Shown here: in pieces, positions 1,129 to 21,833 of the stretch
Layout of the letters: each line of letters starts with the position of its first letter
How positions within the stretch are numbered: position 1 is the stretch's first letter
Assembly: GCA_043803685.1 (NCBI GenBank)
Contig: JAZDJU010000049.1
Span: 1 to 57,308, forward strand
Length of the DNA: 57,308 nucleotides
Direction of reading: 5' to 3'
Source of the DNA: Candidatus Omnitrophota bacterium
GTDB lineage: Bacteria; Omnitrophota; Omnitrophia; Omnitrophales; Aquincolibacteriaceae
Program-made: the position numbers and the translations under genes
Notes under the pieces: generated by a model
Told to the model about the DNA's origin: nothing
Database searches by the model: none
The model's input: only the letters and a program-made list of their open reading frames with translations

Positions 1129-4100
1129 TCAAGCGGCTGTCTGGATCCGGAGATAGCCTTGAATGGCGTTCATCACGACTGCCAGCAAGGTGGCATACTG
1201 AGAAGGCCGGTAAGTGTTTGCCGCATTCAAGTGTGCGTCCGATGCGACTTCCAACAAGGCTGTCGCGATCCCTGCGATCAACGCTTCCATGCGATTTCCA
1301 TCCTCAGTGACCCAATAGCTTTTGACATTTCTGCGCCGGGCCAAAAGCTTCTCGTCTCGAGCCATAAAAGCATCCGCTTCTTTTTCGCCCTCGAAGGATT
1401 TAAAGCGGTCGCTCCCGATCGCTGAAACGATCCGAAGCTGCCCTGGAGCCAACACGATCCCCTCTTGAGCCATGAGCTGATCAAATTGTTTCTGGATCGT
1501 TCGTAGAGTTTCGCCTTCGGCTTCCACATTGATCGAAAGACTGGCGTGCAAAGTCACCAGTAAACCAAGGACCATTGGAAAATGCCGGACAAATTCGTCC
1601 CAGGATTTATTGTCCAAACCCGCCAGGTTCACATGAAGTTGAGGCCCCATCGCGGCATCCCGGGAGGCAAGCGTCCTCACATCTCCGGGAATAGAAGCCA
1701 TGAAGATCTCGAGAAATTGACTGAGCCGCGCACCCGTGATCTGCCCTTCCTTTTCGGAGGCGCTCATGGCCTCGATCAATTGCATCGCGATCCAAAGTCG
1801 CGCTTTACCCGCATCTTGCGTCAATAAGACGATGCTTCGGTCGGAGTAGAGACCTCCCAGAATTTGCGCGGCAAATTCGATCGAAGGAATGTCCGTTTCC
1901 GGGACCAACGTCTTCACCTGATCGAAAACACCCAATTTCAGATCTTGCATCAAGGATTCTTGGATCTCCGCCGTCGACCCGCGAAGCTCCGAACGTTGGG
2001 ATGATCCTAGTGATCCCTTAAACGGCAATGTCCCCTGATAAAGCCTAAGTCCCTTCGCGGCTTGCGTCATAAAAGACAACCCTTCGGCGAAAAGAAAGAT
2101 CTGACGACGACGCGCTACGCCGATCCGGTCCTTCGATATCTGAGACGGAGGATAGAGATCCACGAGTTCCTCTGTCGGAAGACGCTTGAATTTGTGCCAA
2201 CCGTTCAAGATGCTAAGGACGTATTCGGGACTTTTCGTTTTATCGATTGAAGTCTGCCAGGGCTCAAGAGACCACTCCAGAACCGTCTCAGGGAATGTCT
2301 TTACCAGTTCCAAGAAATTTATTTGATAGCCGGGCGTCGTTTCAATAAAGCGCAGCATCCCTACGAGCCAGGCATCCGCCTCTTTTCGAATGTACTTCTT
2401 AAGAGCATCGTTACTGACTTCGCCTTTAGCGCGGAACGCGGTGGGGTTGTAGTAACCCATGGTCCATTTCTCCAGGATATTGCGCAAAGGCGTTAAGGTT
2501 TTTTCGTCTGCACGAAAACCTTTGTAGTGTTGCTTTTCAAAATCCGCGAAGATGCCGTCCACGGTCGTCTTCAGTTCTTGAATGCGCTTCGGATTCACGG
2601 ATTGATCTTTCAATAGGATCTCCTGGATCCCCTTCCATAGTCTGAAAAGATCCTGAAGCGCCCGAAACAAAGGCCTCGACTTCCAAATACCGGACATTTT
2701 TGTCCTGACTGCCGATACATTCATCCTCCCTAACTGATCAAAGAATTTCCCATCTTGTTTAATGAGCTTGGCCTGCAACGCGTCGAAAACGTGCGCCTGT
2801 TTCTCGTCCGGGCTCCGGATTTCCGAACGATTCGCCCCATTCTTTTCTAGTAATTGCGTGAGCGCATTTTGAGTAGCTTCCAGATTGAACGGCTTGGGCA
2901 ACGCGTCAAAAATAACTCCTTCGACCTCCAAGCTTCGAAACAAAGGCCCTATCACGGGATCTTTAAGATTTTCTTCCTTAAGTGCGCTCAAAAAAAGAAC
3001 GGGCACTCTTCTTATTTTCATCGCTTCAGCAACAAATTCCGGCCCCGTCATTTCCGGCATATTGACATCGGAAATGATAAAATCGAAAAACTCTGGATTC
3101 GCACTAAAGATCTCTAGCGCCTCTCTCCCATTACGGGCAATTTGCATATTCTTAGCCTTAACTCCTAAACTCTGCTGGAGGACTGCCGGCACGAGCATAT
3201 TCATAAGCGGATCATCATCGACAAGAAGAAACCGTTTCGAAGCAAGTTCTTTCGGCCGCAGCAACTGTCGTGATGCTTCAGCGATCCCTAAGATCTGGTG
3301 TCTTGCCGGGATAGGGCTGGCATCCAACGTCTTAGTGATGAATTGTTTGATCTTGGCTATCGACACCAGATCCAATAGCCAATCTTTATGGATCGCCATA
3401 GAATTTTCCCGGTAGGTCCTTTCGAGAGAGGCATCCGGATCCATCGACAAGATCTGCAACTGAGGACGATTCAAATCCGTAGCGATCGACGAAAGACCGG
3501 CGGGCGTCACTACAAGATCAGAAGCATTGATGATATTCCGAACGATGCCCATCGAAAGATTCTCGGGCACTTTCATAATAAGATGCGCTTTTGTAGGATA
3601 CTTCTTTGCAAGCTCAGCGGTCACATAATCTACCGCGGGACGGCCCTCTTGATTCAAAGGTCCACCCTGTGAAAAAACAAGATAAGCATCGTGGTCAGCA
3701 AGGATCCAGGACAGAGCATTCAACCATACTTCCGGCGTAACCTCATGCGGAGGTTTCCTTGAAAAAGTATTTACAAAAATGATCTTCCGCCCGTCACGAA
3801 TGGCCGCATCACCAAGCCCCTTCTTCTCGAACATGCTGAAAAGGATGCCTCGCAAACGCTCTCTTTCTTGATCACTCACCTCGGCATGTCCCAGATCCAG
3901 GGTCTGCAGGTCCATGCCATCGCTTAGGAGACCCATCTCGCGATAGATCCTGAGAACGAGCTCCTCATAAACAGGTCGATTCCCTGTGCCCTTCTTGGTG
4001 AGTCGCGTAAGGTCGTCGGTCCCTTTCACGAGCCTGGCTCCTTCCCGGTCCGTCATGAGTACTGCCTTCGGTTTGACCGTCCCCGTAGAGAATGTTTCAG

Positions 4101-7100
4101 GAAGCGGGTTCATATGAGAGAAAACAACCGGCGCGGAATATTCATGAGATCCTGAGCTAGAGACCCCCTGGGTCATCTGAAAAAGCCTCCCAAGATTTTC
4201 GCCTGGTTTGGTGAAGTCGAAAACCATATCGTAATGATTAGAAACAAGCCACATAGCAAGCCCTGCAGTTTTTCCCTCCAAAGCATCCCCGATAATTCCG
4301 TCATCGATAGGAATGACCTTCAAAATGCCGTCCACAGGTTCCAGAGGCGGCAATCTATTCTTTCGATGCTCCGCATCCATCACCGGAAAAACTTTCCCGA
4401 CGAAATGGTCGGAGGAAAACTGGTTGGGATAATCGACCGCCAGATGGAGCTCCCATTCCGGAAATTTCTTCTGCAAAAGCCGCACAAAATGAGAGTAAAG
4501 CATCCACTCCCGACTCATGCTCTCTTTTCCGTACTTTTGATTCCCGAAAATGAAAACTTTCTTCACCGAATCGGCGGACATTTTTTCAAGCGGCCTTTCA
4601 ACCTCCCCCGAGTTCCTCATTTCAGAACGCTGTGTGAGATGAGGAGGCCAGAAAGTGAATTCGCCGACAGGATCTCGGAAGATCTTTTCTAGATCTTCAA
4701 GGGGGATCGGCTTCCTGAAGAAATGGACGGGTCTTTGAGCGGCAAGCTTGTTGACCACTACACGAAAAGGGCCGGCATCTTCCTCCTTCAGACTGGCCAT
4801 CATAAACACTATCGGAATATCACTGAAACGTTCCGGCATCTTCTGAACCCATTCGGTCCCCTTCATGCCTGAGATCTGAAATTCTGTCAAAATGGCGTCC
4901 GGAGTCCACGTTTCCAGATTTTTCAACGCCTCCGCCGCCGAATAAACCTGTCGCGCCTGAAAACCCACGACCTTCAGCATTCGAGCTATCACATCGGCTA
5001 CATTTGGATCATTATCGATCACCAGAATATTTTGAATCGGCTTCGCCAAAGGCTGTCTGTTCCCCTCACGGACCTCTGAACGTTGTGCTTCCAGTTCTTT
5101 AAATATCGCTACTAACATTTTCGCATCGTAAGGTTTGTCAACAAAATAGACCGTGTGCTGCGCTTCCCTTAGAACTTTCACCGCCAGATCAAATGCAGTT
5201 TGATCCTTAATGCGGCCGCTCATAAAAACAACCGGTACATGCTCAAAACCTGGCATTTTGGATGCCGTCAGGACCCATTCGGGGCCTGTCATCCCTGGCA
5301 TCTGGACGTCCGAAAGAATGAAGTCCGGAACATACGTGTTGAGTCTTCCTAAAGCCTCCTCACCGGAAGACACTGACTCCGCTTGGAAACCAGCCCTTTG
5401 AAGCTGGCGAACCGCCATATTCGCTACCATTTCTTCATCATCTACGACCAGGATTTTCTTGATCTCATTGGCCAAAGGCTGCCGGTTTTCACGAACCTCG
5501 GAACGCGCTTCGGGCCAATATTCAAAATTCAGGTGTGGCTCTGCGAGTAATGGCTTCAAAACAGATGGCGAAAAGGGCTTTCCCAATAAATGAATCGGGC
5601 GCACTTTGGCCAAGTCCTGCATCGTCTTCTGAAGTGCCTCATCTGCAATCCACCCGGTCAAAAATATAACGGGAATCTTAGCAAGCTCCGGTATTTCAGA
5701 AAATCTTTGGACCATTTCGGGTCCCATCATCCCAGGCATCGAGATGTCCGATAGCACAATGTCCGGGGTAAAATCTCTAAGCATTTCTAAGGCCCTCGGT
5801 CCCGAATCGGCGGTAACAACCTCGAATCCATGCCCGTCGTGAAGCACCCTCACTGCAAGATCTCGCGATAATTTCTCGTCATCCACCACCAGGATCTTTT
5901 GGATCGGTTTCGCCAAAGGCTTTCGAACCTCCGAACGTACCTCGGGCCAATATTTGAAATGCACTTCCGGTTCTGCGAACAATGTTTGCATGGAATTTGG
6001 AGGAAATGGTTTACCTAAAAAGTGGGTCGGATGTCGCTCGGAAAGCGCCTCGATGGCCTGATCTAATGCCACCTGATCTCCCACGTAAGCGCTCATGAAA
6101 ACAACGGGTACGCTTTCCAACCCCGGCATCTGGGCTGCTTTCAGGACCCACTCAGGACCTGTCATCCCGGGCATCAGGACATCTGTAAGAATGGCGTCCG
6201 GAGTAAATTTTTCGAGTATTTCTAGCGCTTGAGCCCCCGAATCGGCCGTCACCACTTCAAACCCAGCAGGCTTAAGTAGGCGTTTTATGGAAAACGTGAT
6301 CGATTCTTCATCATCCACAATCAGGATGTTTTTAATCCGCTTCGCCAGAGGCTCCCGATTTTCACGAACCTCCGAACGTGTTGCTGCCCCATAAGAGACC
6401 GGTGGCCGGCCAGACACAAGATTGGAAAAATCAACGCCAGCTCCGGATCCAACCTTCGCCAAAGCACGCTGAAAGGAAATAGCGCCGGTAATGGCGGGCG
6501 AAGCGATCGTTGAGTTTTTGGAAGTAAGCGTTCGGGGCATAAAACGCAAGGCCTTCCCGTCGGGGCCCGAGGATTGCACCACGACGGAAGAGGAAAGCAC
6601 CGGGTGCGCCTGGACCGCCTTCGCTACGGCCGCGGTAACGCTCGCCGGTTCCATATGATATTTCTCTGAGAGAAGCGGCGTTGCGACCTCGATCATTTCC
6701 CTGAAAAGAAGCGCTTCCTGTTTCGTAGCAAAGGGATTCTTGACCTTGAAATAAGCGGTCAGGTCCGCGTGATCCTCGGCCATCACTTTCTGATAGAGCT
6801 CCCCGCGATCGGTCCGGCTAATGTGCGGCATGAGCGTCACGTAGCCGATCTCCTGCTCTCGTAAGATCGCGTCGATACCGTCTGTGTGAAAGCCTCCGGT
6901 GATCAGGACCGTGACCCTCTTTTCTTTCCCGCTATTTCCCTTCCCTAAAGCCAGCGCGTTTTCGACAAGGATCCGGTCCCGGAGAAGCGTTGAGTCATAA
7001 AAATAATAGGCCTTGGAAAGCGCGGCTTTCAACTCGGGAGAATTTTTCACGGCAGCGGCCATCGCTTCGCTTTCACGTGCCATCCGCTCATATTCGTCGC

Positions 7101-8487
7101 GCGTCAATTCGAGGGAAAGAATTTTTTCCAGCAGATCAAAAGAATTCAGACGCGAGACCAGCTCTTTTTCGAGGTGGGTCGTCGCAAGCTTCTCGACGAG
7201 CATCCCCTCCAGAGCGTTCATCTCATCGAGAAGTCCTGCCGCCTCGACCTCCTCTTGAAGGATGAACAACTCGAAACTCCGGAGAAAGGGTTCGTGGCCT
7301 TCGAGCGAGATAGAATATTTCCTGGAAAAGAGAAACAGCTGTTCGAGGAGTTTTCGGGGATAAAGCGCCGCCTCGGTGGCGGGACGAACAGCCGCTCCGC
7401 CTTGCGAACCCGAGAGTAGACCGTTTTCATGGCCCCAGAATTCAAGGGACCGAACAAAGTCCTGTCCGGTGATGTCTTTCGCGTTTTTTTTCATCGCGGC
7501 AAGAACATTCGCCCAATCTTCCCGGGCCTTCGCGGCATTGAAACTCTTTTGGACCTCAGCCGCCAAAAGCATTTTCATGAGGTTCGGAAAACGCAATTGC
7601 TCAAGTGGATCTTTGAGATCGATCTGGAGGGTTTTGGTGGCCTGCTTTTTCAAATACTGAACATAGGCTTGAAGGTCGGGGGCTCCGCCCACCCGGTCCG
7701 GATAATACTTCCCCTCCTTACGACGTTTCCGCTCCTTCAAAAAATCGAGCAGGTCTGCGTTCAAACCCCGCGAGACTTCGGCTTCTAATAGGGCCCGAAG
7801 GGGGGTCAAACGAGTTTGAATTTCATCCCGTTTAAAAAGAAGTTCCCGGTATGTTTTTAGATTCTCGCGATAAAGATCAATGTCTTCGACGCCGCTTACC
7901 CGTACGGCGTTTTGCGTACGGCGTTCCACGTCCGCCATTTTCAGACCCACATTTTTTAGGCGCTCGCCGTAGTCCGTACTCCGTACGCTGGACGTATTCG
8001 CTTCTTGCAAAAGATAAAGCTCCGCGCCGCCCAGTTCGCCTTTTTTGAGAAGATCGTCAACGACCGCCTGGTTGGCTTCCGGAAATTTTTTGAAAAATTG
8101 CAGGTATTCCGGATGAAGGGGCCCCGCGACACCCTCGACGCCGATCGCGAGGTTGGGGTATTTCTGTGCTAAAAACTTGAGGATCCCGGCGATGTTCTTC
8201 TGAGCTTCGGGATTCGCGTGAGCATCCTGGATATGAACGACGAACTCTTGCGAAGCAGTTCCCGCGGGCGGCTCCCAGGAGGACACGAGAGAGCCGAGTT
8301 CAGCAGGAATGGCATAGAGATCTTTTCGAAGGCCATCCGACTCCTTAACTTTGCCTTCAAAGTTAAGCCTTTCAGAAGAGGCAAAGGCTTGAGGCAGACT
8401 TCCAGTGAGCGTAGTCACCGTAAAAATGATGGCCACAAGTAAAGAAATCCCCCTACACATCAACGGTCTACTAGATAAAGTTGTCAT
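1129..8487 (-). CDS. Giant 2452-aa modular protein: signal peptide, TIKI/ChaN/EreA-like domain, 4 tandem REC, GT9-like, REC, two unknown domains
   Basis: Signal peptide ending PQAFA; HIQDAH / GVEG / RD / TGGFH motifs; five receiver domains (IL[IV]VDD...D..MPGM.G...KP[FY] pattern); seven RSExR linkers. Confidence 0.9.
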   Translation of the reverse strand: MTTLSSRPLMCRGISLLVAIIFTVTTLTGSLPQAFASSERLNFEGKVKESDGLRKDLYAIPAELGSLVSSWEPPAGTASQEFVVHIQDAHANPEAQKNIAGILKFLAQKYPNLAIGVEGVAGPLHPEYLQFFKKFPEANQAVVDDLLKKGELGGAELYLLQEANTSSVRSTDYGERLKNVGLKMADVERRTQNAVRVSGVEDIDLYRENLKTYRELLFKRDEIQTRLTPLRALLEAEVSRGLNADLLDFLKERKRRKEGKYYPDRVGGAPDLQAYVQYLKKQATKTLQIDLKDPLEQLRFPNLMKMLLAAEVQKSFNAAKAREDWANVLAAMKKNAKDITGQDFVRSLEFWGHENGLLSGSQGGAAVRPATEAALYPRKLLEQLFLFSRKYSISLEGHEPFLRSFELFILQEEVEAAGLLDEMNALEGMLVEKLATTHLEKELVSRLNSFDLLEKILSLELTRDEYERMARESEAMAAAVKNSPELKAALSKAYYFYDSTLLRDRILVENALALGKGNSGKEKRVTVLITGGFHTDGIDAILREQEIGYVTLMPHISRTDRGELYQKVMAEDHADLTAYFKVKNPFATKQEALLFREMIEVATPLLSEKYHMEPASVTAAVAKAVQAHPVLSSSVVVQSSGPDGKALRFMPRTLTSKNSTIASPAITGAISFQRALAKVGSGAGVDFSNLVSGRPPVSYGAATRSEVRENREPLAKRIKNILIVDDEESITFSIKRLLKPAGFEVVTADSGAQALEILEKFTPDAILTDVLMPGMTGPEWVLKAAQMPGLESVPVVFMSAYVGDQVALDQAIEALSERHPTHFLGKPFPPNSMQTLFAEPEVHFKYWPEVRSEVRKPLAKPIQKILVVDDEKLSRDLAVRVLHDGHGFEVVTADSGPRALEMLRDFTPDIVLSDISMPGMMGPEMVQRFSEIPELAKIPVIFLTGWIADEALQKTMQDLAKVRPIHLLGKPFSPSVLKPLLAEPHLNFEYWPEARSEVRENRQPLANEIKKILVVDDEEMVANMAVRQLQRAGFQAESVSSGEEALGRLNTYVPDFILSDVQMPGMTGPEWVLTASKMPGFEHVPVVFMSGRIKDQTAFDLAVKVLREAQHTVYFVDKPYDAKMLVAIFKELEAQRSEVREGNRQPLAKPIQNILVIDNDPNVADVIARMLKVVGFQARQVYSAAEALKNLETWTPDAILTEFQISGMKGTEWVQKMPERFSDIPIVFMMASLKEEDAGPFRVVVNKLAAQRPVHFFRKPIPLEDLEKIFRDPVGEFTFWPPHLTQRSEMRNSGEVERPLEKMSADSVKKVFIFGNQKYGKESMSREWMLYSHFVRLLQKKFPEWELHLAVDYPNQFSSDHFVGKVFPVMDAEHRKNRLPPLEPVDGILKVIPIDDGIIGDALEGKTAGLAMWLVSNHYDMVFDFTKPGENLGRLFQMTQGVSSSGSHEYSAPVVFSHMNPLPETFSTGTVKPKAVLMTDREGARLVKGTDDLTRLTKKGTGNRPVYEELVLRIYREMGLLSDGMDLQTLDLGHAEVSDQERERLRGILFSMFEKKGLGDAAIRDGRKIIFVNTFSRKPPHEVTPEVWLNALSWILADHDAYLVFSQGGPLNQEGRPAVDYVTAELAKKYPTKAHLIMKVPENLSMGIVRNIINASDLVVTPAGLSSIATDLNRPQLQILSMDPDASLERTYRENSMAIHKDWLLDLVSIAKIKQFITKTLDASPIPARHQILGIAEASRQLLRPKELASKRFLLVDDDPLMNMLVPAVLQQSLGVKAKNMQIARNGREALEIFSANPEFFDFIISDVNMPEMTGPEFVAEAMKIRRVPVLFLSALKEENLKDPVIGPLFRSLEVEGVIFDALPKPFNLEATQNALTQLLEKNGANRSEIRSPDEKQAHVFDALQAKLIKQDGKFFDQLGRMNVSAVRTKMSGIWKSRPLFRALQDLFRLWKGIQEILLKDQSVNPKRIQELKTTVDGIFADFEKQHYKGFRADEKTLTPLRNILEKWTMGYYNPTAFRAKGEVSNDALKKYIRKEADAWLVGMLRFIETTPGYQINFLELVKTFPETVLEWSLEPWQTSIDKTKSPEYVLSILNGWHKFKRLPTEELVDLYPPSQISKDRIGVARRRQIFLFAEGLSFMTQAAKGLRLYQGTLPFKGSLGSSQRSELRGSTAEIQESLMQDLKLGVFDQVKTLVPETDIPSIEFAAQILGGLYSDRSIVLLTQDAGKARLWIAMQLIEAMSASEKEGQITGARLSQFLEIFMASIPGDVRTLASRDAAMGPQLHVNLAGLDNKSWDEFVRHFPMVLGLLVTLHASLSINVEAEGETLRTIQKQFDQLMAQEGIVLAPGQLRIVSAIGSDRFKSFEGEKEADAFMARDEKLLARRRNVKSYWVTEDGNRMEALIAGIATALLEVASDAHLNAANTYRPSQYATLLAVVMNAIQGYLRIQTAA

Positions 8488-17833: not shown

Positions 17834-19663
17834 CTAAATTTCGACCTGGCAGGTGATGTAAAAAGTCGAGGCACCGGCCCCGGAAGTGGGATCGTCCCCC
17901 AAGGCTTTGGCCCACTGGGCGCGCACATAGAGGTTCTTCCGGAAATGAAGTTGCACGCCGCCCCCCGAGCCCATAAGGAACTTGTGCTCTCGTTCCCCCT
18001 GGAGGGTTTTGTTAAGCTTTCCCATCCCGACATCCAGAAAAACGAAGGGCTCGATCTGGCTTCGCAGAGGCACATCCGCCTTGGGAAGTTTCCAACGCTC
18101 AGGGATAAAATACGCTGGGAACATCCAGTCGGTGCTGATATTGCCACCAATATCCGCCATATAATCGCCTTCGGGATAACCTCGAACTGTATTGATCCCC
18201 CCGAGCTGACACTGTTCCGATGACGGAAGTGTATAAGGACTTACCTGAAAAACGGACCGGATGGCCATGTAGCTTTTCAGGAACATCCGCTGCATACGGC
18301 GAAGATTCTGCGTGTAATTAAAAAAGAACCCTCCCGTGCCGTCGCGGCTGGCGCTCGGATGATTGCGTGTCGAGGCTCCCAGAAAACGCGATGTCCCGAA
18401 AGTGAATTGGGGCGAAAAGGTGGTTTCTCCTCCGCCTCCGAAAAGATCCGTTTTGTTAAGATCAAAGCCAAAGTACGGCAAGCGAAGCTGGTCGTTCGTC
18501 GTGATCGCTCCGGCGATCTTCTTTTTGATGACCTTGATCTCCATCCCAGCAGAAGCATTCGCCTGAAAACTTTCGGAAAGATACAATTCCTTGGAGATGT
18601 GGGGACTGTAGATCTGCGTCGTCCCCGTCACATGAAAGGACCGGAGCTCCTTGCCGAGTGTCATCGTAAAATAGGTCATATCCATGCCGATCATGGTGCC
18701 ACGCGTATCCAACGGCAGGTCGTAACTCGAAGACACCCCGACGGTATCAGCACTGAGGATATTGCTCGCAAAAAATGAATCAAAATGTCCCGTGAGATTG
18801 CTGCTGCGCAAATAGAACGAAGTCCGGTTCTTCCCCGTCAGACGTGTCCCCTGATTGTCAAATCCTGCCCCGATGTGATAAGGAACGTTCTCCTTGGCAC
18901 GCAGGACGATATCGCTTGTCCCCGTCACCTCGCCCGCCTGAATGAACGTCTTGATCTCAAGATCAGGGTTCTGGTTAAGCCTCAGAATATCTTTCTGAAG
19001 CCTGGGCATATTCAAAGGCTCCTCTTTTTTGATATGGAGAAATTTCTCGATCAGAGCGCGCGAGAACCAACGGTTCCCCTCGACAGTCACCTTACCCAGA
19101 CGGCCTTCGACCACTTTGACCTCAACCTTCCCCCCCTTGATATCCTGCTCGGGGACAAAGACGGTCGTGGTCAGATACCCTTTCCGGACATAGCGGTCTT
19201 CGATTTTCTTGGTGATCTCATCCAGATCTTGAAAAGAGATTTTTTTGTCGAGATAGGCTTGATAGGTCGGCCGGAGATCCTGAGGCTTGAACACCGTGCT
19301 TCCTGTAACGCTGATCTCTTTCAGGAGAAAGGTCGCGGCGGAGGGCGCTGCCGCTCCCTTGGGCTTTTCCACTTCGATTTCAGGAGCTTTGACCTTCTTC
19401 TTCCCGAGAAGTTCCTTCCTTTGCTCGAACTGCTGATAAACGCGCTCGCCCTGCGCCCCCGGTTCCTGCCCGGGAGGAATATTCGCGGCAAAAGCCGGCG
19501 TTGTGATCCCGATCATTGCTATAAGAAAAAACAGCCTTCTCGATGCGTGTGTCAACTCTATGGATCCTTGTCTCATCGTATGGGGTATGCAGCTTTTAAA
19601 TCGCCGCCTGAATTGATTTTCGTCGACGGCTTCACGCATTCTGTAACGGCAAAACCGCACCAA
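17834..19663 (-). CDS. ShlB/FhaC/HecB (TpsB) two-partner secretion transporter
   Basis: POTRA motifs (I.V.GSTVF, Y..KGY.TT.V.VPEQDI..G.V...VVEG) and the TpsB motif LGGINTVRGY. Start uncertain; signal peptide ends near PAFA. Confidence 0.9.
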   Translation of the reverse strand: MVRFCRYRMREAVDENQFRRRFKSCIPHTMRQGSIELTHASRRLFFLIAMIGITTPAFAANIPPGQEPGAQGERVYQQFEQRKELLGKKKVKAPEIEVEKPKGAAAPSAATFLLKEISVTGSTVFKPQDLRPTYQAYLDKKISFQDLDEITKKIEDRYVRKGYLTTTVFVPEQDIKGGKVEVKVVEGRLGKVTVEGNRWFSRALIEKFLHIKKEEPLNMPRLQKDILRLNQNPDLEIKTFIQAGEVTGTSDIVLRAKENVPYHIGAGFDNQGTRLTGKNRTSFYLRSSNLTGHFDSFFASNILSADTVGVSSSYDLPLDTRGTMIGMDMTYFTMTLGKELRSFHVTGTTQIYSPHISKELYLSESFQANASAGMEIKVIKKKIAGAITTNDQLRLPYFGFDLNKTDLFGGGGETTFSPQFTFGTSRFLGASTRNHPSASRDGTGGFFFNYTQNLRRMQRMFLKSYMAIRSVFQVSPYTLPSSEQCQLGGINTVRGYPEGDYMADIGGNISTDWMFPAYFIPERWKLPKADVPLRSQIEPFVFLDVGMGKLNKTLQGEREHKFLMGSGGGVQLHFRKNLYVRAQWAKALGDDPTSGAGASTFYITCQVEI

Positions 19664-19727: not shown

Positions 19728-20192
19728 CTATTCCTGAAGGGGCTGTACGGAAACTGACGCGAGTCCCTTTCGCGGGTTCGAGATCTTTGCGAAAGCGGCA
19801 CGAGTCAGGTCAATGACCCGGCCGAGACGCTTGGCCGGACCGCGATCGTTGACCACACAGATCACCGATCTCCCGTTGGCGAGATTCGTGATCTTGAGAC
19901 GTGTCCCGAATGGAAACTTCCAGGACGCGCAGGTCATGCGCCTGTCGTCAAAAATGTCGCCATTGGCCGTCCGTTTTTTGATCTTCGGGCTAGCCCGGCT
20001 ATACCAGGACGCGGTTCCGAACAGAGCGAGGCGTATTTCCGTCATGGAACTTTCTTTCTCCTCCGCCGGCGTCAGGATCACGCCCGTGACTGAACCGGGG
20101 ATCTCTTGGAGCATGGAAGTGGGACTGGCAGAGACAAGAGGCACTGCAGTAAACATCATGAGAGCGAGCCAACGCCTGACGCCTTGCTTCAC
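19728..20192 (-). CDS. rlpA: RlpA family septal ring lytic transglycosylase
   Basis: GTASWY...TANG..FD...TCA...PFGT.LKITNL.NGRSV...VNDRGP...RVIDLT. Start reassigned to GTG 20192, 5 nt after GGAGG, which gives a signal peptide. Confidence 0.9.
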   Translation of the reverse strand: MKQGVRRWLALMMFTAVPLVSASPTSMLQEIPGSVTGVILTPAEEKESSMTEIRLALFGTASWYSRASPKIKKRTANGDIFDDRRMTCASWKFPFGTRLKITNLANGRSVICVVNDRGPAKRLGRVIDLTRAAFAKISNPRKGLASVSVQPLQE

Positions 20193-20200
20193 GAGAGCCT

Positions 20201-20362
20201 CCCCCGGCAACCCAGCCTCCCTTACGCGAGAAACTTTGCTCACGCACTCGGGACTGTGGCTTTGCAGCGCAAGCGGCAACTTCACCCTTGCGCTGTTCCG
20301 CAACCTTTGGAAGATTTTACGGAACGTCCCCTGATCTCTCAGGGTTTGCCTCTACTCAAAGT
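20201..20362 (-). promoter_or_regulatory. c-di-GMP-I (GEMM) riboswitch with 60-nt internal insertion
   Basis: GGCAAA-CCCTGA-GAGA-TCAGGG-GAC [insert] GCAAA-GCC-A-CAG-TCCC...GGGA-GG-CTG-GGTTGCCG, ending at the rlpA Shine-Dalgarno. Confidence 0.75.
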
Positions 20363-20462
20363 GTGTCCGTTAAAATCCATTTTTACAAGCTCGGGGGCAA
20401 GAAACTTCAGGATCGGAAAGAAAAGCGAACGGTTTGTATTCGGAGATCATCAGTCAACAAAT

Positions 20463-20484
20463 GTGCGCCAAGAGGGATTCGAAC
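20463..20484 (-). other. Isolated tRNA 3' fragment (att-like remnant)
   Basis: GTTCGAATCCCTCTTGGCGCAC = T-loop, T-stem 3' strand and acceptor 3' strand; no D or anticodon arm upstream. Confidence 0.55.
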
Positions 20485-20527
20485 AGCTACAGTTCAGAGG
20501 GTCCTTATGATGTGTTGCGCCGCGAGC

Positions 20528-21214
20528 TCACGCTGCGGTACATTTCCTTGTCGCGATCCAGATGAGATGGTGCGCGCCCTTGCCTCCGGCACGCGCCCGG
20601 ACACGGATCGCCTCCACTTTAAATCCTACGTGTTCCATGCGACGGGTAAATTCCACATCAGGGCCAGCGGACCACAGCGCAAGCACCCCCTCCGGCCGTA
20701 GCGCCGCCAGCATCGCATGAAGCCCCGAGAGACCATAGAACCAGTGGTTCCCCGTCCTGGAAAGTCCCGCGGGTCCATTATCCACATCCAGAAGAATCGC
20801 ATCGTAACGTCCCCTGCCGGTCTTGATCAACTTGGCCGCATTCACCTCATGAACGGTCACCCGGTTGTCGTCGAGAGGCTGACCCGCTAAAGCGGCAAGC
20901 GGCCCACGGTTCCACTTCACCACCGCAGGCATCAGTTCCGCCACCTCCACCCGGGCTGTGACCGGAAGCCCGTCGAGGGCCGCACGAAGCGTGAACCCCA
21001 TCCCGAGCCCGCCGATCAGCACGCGCGTGCGGTCCTGTTTTTCCATTCTTTCCAGCGCCAACCGGGCCAACATTTCCTCAGACTCATGCGTCCGGCTGCT
21101 CATGAGCTGGACATTCCCCACGCAGATAAAGAAATCCTTATCGTGCTGATAGAGTCGAAGCTCTTTCCCGCCGTCAGGCGTTTCAGCTTTGTCGAGCAAA
21201 ATCTGTGGAATCAT
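20528..21214 (-). CDS. Spermidine-synthase-like SAM-dependent methyltransferase
   Basis: LMSSR..ESEE.LA, VLIGGLGMGFTL, YDAILLDVDNGP, LALWSA. Confidence 0.85.
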   Translation of the reverse strand: MIPQILLDKAETPDGGKELRLYQHDKDFFICVGNVQLMSSRTHESEEMLARLALERMEKQDRTRVLIGGLGMGFTLRAALDGLPVTARVEVAELMPAVVKWNRGPLAALAGQPLDDNRVTVHEVNAAKLIKTGRGRYDAILLDVDNGPAGLSRTGNHWFYGLSGLHAMLAALRPEGVLALWSAGPDVEFTRRMEHVGFKVEAIRVRARAGGKGAHHLIWIATRKCTAA

Positions 21215-21245: not shown

Positions 21246-21833
21246 TTACGATTTCCGGACAGCCGTCCCCTTTTTCTCTTCACCGCGCAACACCATCGTT
21301 TTGCCGTCATATTCCCGGAAGAGATCCTCCCGGATCCCTTCGTTCCAGACTTCTTCTCGCTGCAACTGGCCGCTCTTGCTGTATTTTTTAGCCAGGCCGT
21401 GCTGTCTCCCGTTCTTGTAAAATTTCTCTTCCTGGAGTTGCCCGCTCGCGTAATACCACTTCACAGGGCCTTCCCGCGTTCCGTTCCTGAAAAAACTTTC
21501 GGAGGCCAATTGTCCGTTCTCATAATACATCTTGGACGCCCCCTCAAGATGTCCGTCCTTCCAAACCTCTTCTTTTTGCAACTGTCCGTTCTCGTGATAT
21601 GCCTTGAACGGACCCGCCGGGTTCCCCGCTTTGAGAACTTTCTCGGCTTTCAGTTTTCCGTTCTTGTGATAATACTTAACCGTTCCCTCGGCCTTTCCAT
21701 CCTTGTAAACGGCCTCGGTACTTAATTGTCCGTTCTCATAATACGATATGACGGGGCCCTCGAGGATCCCGTTCTCGTAAGTCCTCTTGCATTTCAATTG
21801 CCCGTTCTTGTAATGCTCCCTTCCAATGTACAT
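21246..21833 (-). CDS. MORN-2 repeat protein (YwqK-like antitoxin family)
   Basis: Seven 24-aa repeats of the type G...YYENGQL..E. Confidence 0.85.
   Translation of the reverse strand: MYIGREHYKNGQLKCKRTYENGILEGPVISYYENGQLSTEAVYKDGKAEGTVKYYHKNGKLKAEKVLKAGNPAGPFKAYHENGQLQKEEVWKDGHLEGASKMYYENGQLASESFFRNGTREGPVKWYYASGQLQEEKFYKNGRQHGLAKKYSKSGQLQREEVWNEGIREDLFREYDGKTMVLRGEEKKGTAVRKS

Follow-up and report, generated by a model that had tools for sequence, protein, structure and literature searches.

A putative class I c-di-GMP riboswitch aptamer with a two-hairpin insert upstream of an RlpA-like gene in Omnitrophota

The closest described relatives of the RNA reported here are the class I c-di-GMP (GEMM-I) riboswitches, represented by Rfam family RF01051 and by the Vc2 aptamer. 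In the accessible part of the GEMM discovery paper, the stem called P1 (today's P2) consists of a 2-bp and a 6-bp stem around a 3-nt internal loop (PMC1950547). According to the accessible portions of two papers on Vc2, G20 and C92 each pair with a different guanine of the ligand and the backbone of A47 touches a 2'-hydroxyl (PMC5888326), and C44 and G83 form a long-range Watson-Crick pair that is required for stable docking (PMC11705072). Two further groups, the c-di-GMP-I-GGC family (RF03167) and the c-AMP-GMP-sensing GEMM-Ib RNAs, belong to the same clan and have the same fold.

The window analysed here is the whole of a 57,308-nt stretch of contig JAZDJU010000049.1 from a Candidatus Omnitrophota bacterium (assembly GCA_043803685.1). 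Judged by its sequence, the minus strand at 20354-20203 is predicted to be a complete GEMM-I aptamer core with a two-hairpin insert. The features of the locus are:

20203..20354, minus strand: whole aptamer, core plus twin-hairpin insert (RF01051 local match 20203-20360, 24.3 bits)
20350-20345, minus strand: GGCAAA, J1/2 (Rfam consensus alignment; invariant in six genus orthologs)
20344-20329, minus strand: P2 hairpin CCCTGA/GAGA/TCAGGG, 6 bp with a GAGA (GNRA) tetraloop (sequence and RNAalifold)
20328-20326, minus strand: GAC of the P2 internal loop, with the C44 equivalent (20326) immediately 5' of the insert
20295..20325, minus strand: insert hairpin 1, GTTCCGTAA (20325-20317) with TTGCGGAAC (20303-20295), 9-bp stem and 13-nt loop
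20266..20294, minus strand: insert hairpin 2, AGCGCAAG (20294-20287) with CTTGCGCT (20273-20266), 8-bp stem and 13-nt loop
20265-20261, minus strand: GCAAA, comprising G45 and C46 and the A47 equivalent, 20263 (Rfam alignment)
20206..20260, minus strand: P3 with bulged GG (20217-20216), G83 equivalent 20216, ending in GGGTTGCC (20213-20206)
20209-20206, minus strand: TGCC, C92 equivalent 20207
20193..20205, minus strand: predicted expression platform, Shine-Dalgarno GGGGGAGG (20205-20198) and anti-Shine-Dalgarno CTCTC (20197-20193), mutually pairable
19728..20192, minus strand: 154-aa secreted RlpA-like protein, DPBB_1, with a GTG start at 20192-20190 (Pfam PF03330, 1.2e-15)
17834..19663, minus strand: next gene, encoding a ShlB/FhaC-type POTRA outer-membrane protein (Pfam PF03865, PF08479)

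An initial annotation of this DNA had described a GEMM-I aptamer split by a precise 60-nt double-hairpin insertion, and every element that it listed is present on the minus strand where it had been placed, including the equivalents of G20 (20350), A47 (20263) and C92 (20207). The core shares with RF01051 and Vc2 a GGCAAA containing G20, a P2 whose 2-bp and 6-bp stems flank a 3-nt internal loop (AAA/GAC) and which is closed by a GNRA tetraloop, the GAC, a GCAAA containing A47, the bulged G of P3 (G83), a UGCC containing C92 and a 5'-UTR position ahead of an envelope gene. The equivalents of G21 and C22 (20349 and 20348) pair with those of C46 and G45 (20265-20264), and these two pairs are GC and CG in all 81 alignment rows with letters at these positions. 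The internal loop of P3 has a conserved CCCGA... at the place where the Rfam consensus has the CUAAG...UAUG of a type 1 tetraloop receptor, and is not a canonical receptor.

The window differs from RF01051 and Vc2 in having 60 nt of two hairpins, and with them a predicted four-way junction, between C44 and G45. The contiguous GACGCAAA, in which C44 adjoins G45, is absent and its halves lie 60 nt apart. The block at 20325-20266 consists of two abutting hairpins that lie exactly between GAC and GCAAA, with a boundary that is ambiguous by 1 nt because a G both starts the insert and follows it. Folded alone, the block forms two flush hairpins at -29.0 kcal/mol compared with -15.7 kcal/mol for shuffles (z -4.5). 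Both this fold and a direct reading of the sequence agree with the precise double-hairpin insertion that had been described. The insert is unlikely to be a chance structure since its fold energy beats the shuffles and its two-hairpin layout is kept in orthologs, as described below.

We consider it reasonably likely that this locus is a working c-di-GMP-I riboswitch in which the twin-hairpin insert is a passenger repeat copy, kept self-paired, and which controls translation of the RlpA-like gene. The sensor would be of the GNRA-tetraloop type with the G20, A47 and C92 of c-di-GMP-binding members, and would control the RlpA-like gene and probably the outer-membrane genes behind it. The 60-nt twin-hairpin ("dumbbell") module would form a four-way junction on the 3' side of the P2 internal loop, at the C44/G45 site where the backbone already departs from the helix. 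Since the hairpins abut each other and both flanks without a linker, the entry and exit of the insert would be adjacent, so the three-helix core could fold as usual and the tolerance of the insert would be explained by geometry.

Standard annotation misses this aptamer because the sensor core holds two extra hairpins. At Rfam gathering thresholds the whole window contains two tRNAs and nothing else. A permissive scan of 20100-20500 aligned RF01051 end to end (model positions 1-87) with 20203-20360 on the minus strand at 24.3 bits (E 0.01), short of the gathering cut-off of 35 bits, with 79 nt in place of 19 nt of the model as one long insertion. That covariance models could miss the aptamer, as had been anticipated, was thus correct. 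In a genome-wide scan the locus appeared as two overlapping half matches (23.8 and 22 bits), and elsewhere in the same genome there was one canonical aptamer (contig C106, 56.8 bits). We rejected the idea that the locus contains two overlapping half-aptamers; it has a single GGCAAA, a single GCAAAGCC and a single UGCC, and the orthologs have a single core. Our own covariance model R1, described below, matched the window at 20203-20354 with 104 bits, a score to be read with the window itself being part of the R1 seed.

We attribute the sub-threshold score to the insert on the basis of two comparisons. An insert-free ortholog from another genus of the same family (locus L013), which precedes a gene for an RlpA-like protein with 57% identity, has the contiguous GACGCAAA and scores 63.7 bits with RF01051. 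The second comparison used as a proxy a profile HMM based on 35 canonical aptamers from the family to which the bacterium belongs. The native sequence matched this HMM in two pieces (18.8 and 12.8 bits), exact removal of 20325-20266 gave a single end-to-end match of 46.4 bits, and six 60-nt deletions shifted by 10-30 nt gave 18.8 to 27.0 bits. Thus, the insertion is precise, within the 1-nt ambiguity of the G. The rise in score upon removal of the insert that the initial annotation had predicted is in this way borne out indirectly, by an ortholog and by a proxy model.

To find orthologs we combined a DNA search of 61 related genomes with inspection of the loci. The leader was found in five further species of the genus (G006, G007, G010, G014 and G019), each time 5' of a gene for an RlpA-like ortholog (46-64% identity), and in all five a pair of abutting hairpins separates GAC (GGC in G007) from GCAAA. 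The insert is 41-42 nt long in four of these species and 60 nt long in G007 and the window. The core motifs are invariant in all six genus orthologs, the window included. In hairpin 1, several stacked positions are altered on both strands among these orthologs. RF01051 scored the leaders from G006, G010, G014 and G019 at 25.5-28.6 bits, so that with the window all five of the scored rlpA-leader aptamers of the genus are below the Rfam threshold; the same scan listed no Rfam match for G007.

Outside the genus the orthologous leaders are of three kinds. The one from G025 is canonical and lacks the insert, the one from G035 has an insert of the same type at the same site, and in the one from G027 two hairpins are located instead within the 5' strand of P2. 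Among the fetched loci of the family, a regular-expression count gave 23 canonical aptamers, 12 in which an insert follows GAC and 6 in which P2 is expanded, a count that is biased by the choice of long and sub-threshold matches for fetching. A second expanded GEMM-I type, in which the 5' strand of P2 contains two hairpins between the basal pairs and the distal GA-GNRA-TC, is seen at L014 (G027), L071 (G022), the second aptamer of L084 (G067), L073, L075 and L077. The P2-strand hairpins of L071 have stems of the TCCGCC/GGCGGA and CCGCAG type, as in inserts after GAC. The 5' strand of P2 may be a second permissive site that follows the same geometric logic. There are also tandem GEMM-I arrangements in which the twin-hairpin insert is present in both aptamers (L067, G075:C5) or in the second alone, the first being canonical (L056, G034:C26).

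The comparison within the genus bears on the suggestion, made in the initial annotation, that the insert adds a second input, which might be a second ligand, a protein or temperature. The insert does lie beside the ligand pocket, and a further pocket or a binding site for a protein could conceivably be built from its two helices. However, the loops vary freely in sequence and in length (3 to 13 nt within the genus), and hairpin 2 has no sequence in common between the window, G007 and the other four species. One orthologous leader dispenses with the insert and one has its two hairpins elsewhere, no Rfam family matches the insert at E values up to 10, the genes downstream of insert-bearing aptamers are diverse, and the inserts of the sister species belong to a dispersed repeat family (see below). 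We find a second input highly improbable; the dumbbell would be a passenger and not a second sensor.

We then asked how widely such inserts occur with a pattern consisting of GGCAAA, a 16-nt GNRA hairpin, GACG, a gap of 28-58 nt and GCAAARCCRC, applied to one genome per species. This tight pattern replaced an earlier, looser one for which the matches listed were mostly chance with few real loci. It matched 50 loci that by our own sorting comprise 26 insert-bearing GEMM-I aptamers, 6 tandem canonical aptamers and 18 chance matches. The sequence titles of the 26 name Omnitrophota or Omnitrophica in 11 cases, Planctomycetia or Planctomycetales in 7, Elusimicrobiota, the Patescibacteria group and Ratteibacteria in 1 each, and only bacteria in 5.

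When all loci were pooled, 31 distinct aptamers had an insert, which consists of two hairpins in 29 of them and of a single hairpin in 2. Apart from its first G, the insert was left unconstrained by the tight pattern. When folded alone, 28 of the 31 inserts form two hairpins flush with both ends compared with 419 of 3100 dinucleotide shuffles (z-scores, -1.4 to -8.8), and the 5' junction of the insert has 0 unpaired nt in 31/31. Covariance model R1 was built from ten insert-bearing sequences and run over 82 sources; it yielded 84 aligned matches that form 82 distinct rows, many of them from loci found by a pattern that fixes several core motifs. Among these 82 rows both-sided changes occur at all 10 model pairs of hairpin 1 (93.5% of cells paired), at all 7 model pairs of hairpin 2 (94.4% of cells paired) and at all 6 pairs of P2. 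Over the whole structure 94.5% of cells are paired compared with 66.5% in shuffles (0/500 reach 94.5%), and sliding the partners by 1-3 columns leaves at most 45.9% paired; these pair counts come from an alignment fitted to the structure of the model, which favours that structure, a bias from which the single-sequence folds are free.

The recurrence of one insertion point in several phyla could mean that the hairpins have been selected for a role, beyond mere tolerance. They might then be an adaptive part of the sensor and set apart a GEMM-I subclass with a four-way junction, where the added helices would support P2/P3 or the C44-G83 contact and thereby adjust affinity, folding speed or Mg dependence, with c-di-GMP still as the ligand. 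The use of one site in at least 31 distinct aptamers, junctions that are always flush and a structure kept since before the genus diverged are all consistent with such a role, as is the closing pair of hairpin 1, which is G-C or G-U in 36 of the 44 rows with letters there, the G being fixed by the pattern for many of them. Against it, the stems and loops contain no conserved nucleotides able to make a specific contact. In addition, orthologous leaders exist that lack the insert or have it in another position, and the hairpins resemble a dispersed genomic repeat. We regard this adaptive explanation as unlikely but well worth keeping in mind.

The nucleotides that contact the ligand in Vc2 or dock the helices appear to be as conserved in insert-bearing aptamers as in canonical ones. 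Among the 82 distinct rows aligned to R1, the A47 equivalent is A in 42/42 and the C92 equivalent is C in 41/42 insert-bearing rows, where the GCAAA containing A47 was fixed by the pattern and the C of C92 by a filter for many rows. The G83 column was free of any pattern constraint, and there G is found in 39/42 insert-bearing and 33/34 canonical rows. The initial annotation had described C44 as bulged out; this stands insofar as the nucleotide leaves the helix, but in Vc2, as given in the accessible part of PMC11705072, it is not free and pairs with G83 over a long range. An effect of the insert on affinity or folding is plausible, because the insert directly follows the C44 equivalent, and in Vc2 docking depends on the pair between C44 and G83. 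Members of the GGC variant have G at position 47 and GEMM-Ib RNAs have A at position 20. These relatives thus vary at the pocket itself, in contrast to the window, which has the standard G/A/C pocket plus an added domain. RF03167 is the best-scoring model for two canonical relatives of the aptamer described here (L011 and L001).

These data also bear on whether the insertion inactivated the riboswitch and left a decaying relic, with the gene expressed constitutively or under the Shine-Dalgarno hairpin alone. An RF01051 score below threshold and an insertion beside C44 and the nucleotides of the ligand pocket are what a relic might show. A relic would not be expected, however, to keep core motifs invariant in six species in which the hairpins and flanks have diverged, to conserve its pocket and tertiary-contact nucleotides as well as canonical aptamers do or to maintain hairpin pairing through double changes, and so we judge this explanation quite improbable. 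Because the core was conserved while the hairpins turned over between species, a working c-di-GMP aptamer is favored, from which we infer that the RNA binds c-di-GMP.

The origin of the insert was approached through a motif common to the inserts of the sister species (TYCGCC, 8-14 nt, GGCGGAYCCGC), which we searched for in 66 genomes of the family. The motif occurs at 50 places in 20 of the 66 genomes compared with 2 for a reversed control. About ten of the 50 places are in or beside GEMM-I aptamers and the rest are elsewhere, and at many of the places the repeat is a complete twin hairpin that has a palindromic centre and matches on both strands. We describe the repeat as two abutting hairpins whose stems are of the TCCGCC/GGCGGA and YCCGC/GCGGR type, and its motif is matched by the inserts of G006, G010, G014, G019 and G035. 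Since this shared motif is dispersed and far exceeds its control, the inserts of the sister species belong to a dispersed repeat family.

The insert in the window has the two-hairpin layout without the repeat motif. A search of its own genome for copies of the insert returned the insert itself and a 14-nt chance match, and a recent repeat copy from the same genome was rejected as its source, the insert being unique in the genome. We infer from its shared position and from orthology with the sister species that it derives from the dispersed repeat. The module would have begun as a copy of the twin-hairpin repeat that landed before the species of the genus diverged, and compensatory changes would since have preserved its self-pairing, as the sensor would be disturbed by an insert that does not fold. 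Given that the sister-species inserts match the repeat, the insert in the window is most likely a tolerated repeat copy whose shape was held in this way.

Dispersed palindromic repeats built from short hairpin-forming units, often paired, are known in bacteria as REP, BIME and REPIN elements. The Omnitrophota repeat resembles these in having hairpin units scattered through genomes. It differs from them in consisting of two tandem hairpins with a palindromic centre, in having a copy inside a functional RNA and in having one copy, in the genome studied here, beside a small GIY-YIG gene and a tRNA. The last of these (G000:C104, L259 1140-1640, minus strand) is a 42-nt twin-hairpin repeat at the apparent D-loop position of a copy of a tRNA-Lys 5' fragment. 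The repeat-bearing fragment is followed by a small GIY-YIG-type ORF and then by an intact tRNA-Lys, and approximately 31 nt, 7 of them from upstream of the tRNA, are present in duplicate on the two sides. Flanks of a similar kind, made of tRNA 5' fragments, were observed in L275 and L285 (G082). A dumbbell inside the D-loop of a tRNA gene was considered and rejected; ARAGORN and Rfam call no tRNA there, and the case in this genome is a copy of a 5' fragment. A general association of the repeat with GIY-YIG genes is not supported by a search of 30 repeat loci, in which the matches were the query ORF itself and two weak ones. The genome also contains five copies of another repeat of about 60 nt (C31:24685, C84:4378, C103:36565, C103:39132 and C103:43625), which is a TCCGCC...GGCGGA hairpin flanked by CATTGCGAAGGAG and CGACTGCGGCAATC.

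A broader proposal is that a small mobile twin-hairpin repeat of Omnitrophota and neighbouring phyla repeatedly lands at, or survives only at, sites in structured RNAs where the backbone is extruded, and that in GEMM-I it has been recruited as real fourth and fifth helices. These would define a subclass with a four-way junction and with altered binding kinetics, affinity or ligand preference, in place of a silent passenger. We think this proposal distinctly unlikely.

Helices added at surface points of an RNA while the fold is kept are known from the intervening sequences of 23S rRNA and the peripheral extensions of group I introns, and in some bacterial rRNAs the intervening sequences are removed after transcription. 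The window is similar to these systems in having extra helices at a surface-exposed point without destruction of the fold, and different in that the host RNA is a small ligand sensor. By analogy the dumbbell might be excised or cut post-transcriptionally to leave a canonical or two-piece aptamer as the mature sensor. The geometry would suit excision, with the stacked hairpins forming a helix of approximately 17 bp whose flanks enter and leave at one point, but the stems are short for RNase III, they contain no conserved cleavage motif and excision is not needed to explain the data. This alternative lacks support in our data and we consider it extremely improbable.

In a literature search that covered mainly freely accessible papers we found no published description of the insert variant, including in the accessible parts of the discovery paper (PMC1950547) and of a 2026 preprint on noncoding clusters. 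The aptamer represents a new structural form within a riboswitch class that is already known. In every core feature tested it is GEMM-I; formally it differs in scoring below the Rfam threshold and in lacking a contiguous GACGCAAA. The variant points to an annotation gap, in that a recurrent form of a well-studied riboswitch class is missed by the curated model, and because such aptamers fall below threshold the annotation of c-di-GMP regulons in Omnitrophota, Planctomycetota and comparable uncultured groups is likely to be incomplete. A precise site beside the ligand pocket that tolerates a large insertion is of use for riboswitch engineering and informs how RNA folds gain helices, and the link to a dispersed repeat suggests mobile palindromic DNA as a source of new RNA domains.

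Directly downstream of the aptamer is the gene for the secreted RlpA-like protein, and RlpA-like orthologs are encoded directly downstream of the riboswitch in 8 relatives. The gene for the ShlB/FhaC-type protein follows and would probably be co-transcribed with it. Further behind on the same strand are genes for a porin-like protein and then a CHASE4-PAS histidine kinase. The Shine-Dalgarno sequence begins 1 nt after UGCC and a pyrimidine tract immediately precedes the GTG. RNAalifold applied to six orthologs predicted a 5-bp hairpin between the Shine-Dalgarno and anti-Shine-Dalgarno sequences (columns 176-180 with 188-192) that has one both-sided change, and in nine orthologous leaders, whether or not they have the insert, the Shine-Dalgarno sequence and pyrimidine tract vary in concert and their pairing is kept. 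Control of the gene is most likely translational, via this predicted hairpin; the ligand could turn the gene either on or off. The CUUCC in the loop of hairpin 1 was rejected as an anti-Shine-Dalgarno sequence; it is present only in the copy in the window.

The initial annotation had the 3' strand of P1 running into the rlpA Shine-Dalgarno sequence. It was right that the Shine-Dalgarno sequence of the RlpA-like gene comes directly after the aptamer, but a P1 strand is not evident, and the conserved element adjoining the aptamer is the predicted Shine-Dalgarno/anti-Shine-Dalgarno hairpin. The orthologs have promoter-like hexamers (TTGNNA, 17 nt, TAGNTT), identified by eye, that would place the start of the RNA a few nt 5' of GGCAAA. 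A conventional P1 is doubtful, as these hexamers would leave only a few nt of leader 5' of the aptamer, and if they are real the window differs from RF01051 and Vc2 in being almost without a 5' leader for P1. A promoter-like site inside the aptamer was dismissed as chance, being one 9-of-12 match with its second hexamer in a loop absent from the orthologs. Upstream of the riboswitch, the minus strand encodes a spermidine-synthase-like protein and a protein with MORN-repeat variants (20528-21214 and 21246-21833). Elsewhere in the window, a 2452-aa ORF on the minus strand (1129-8487) contains five response-regulator receiver domains and has no other Pfam match at E 1e-5.
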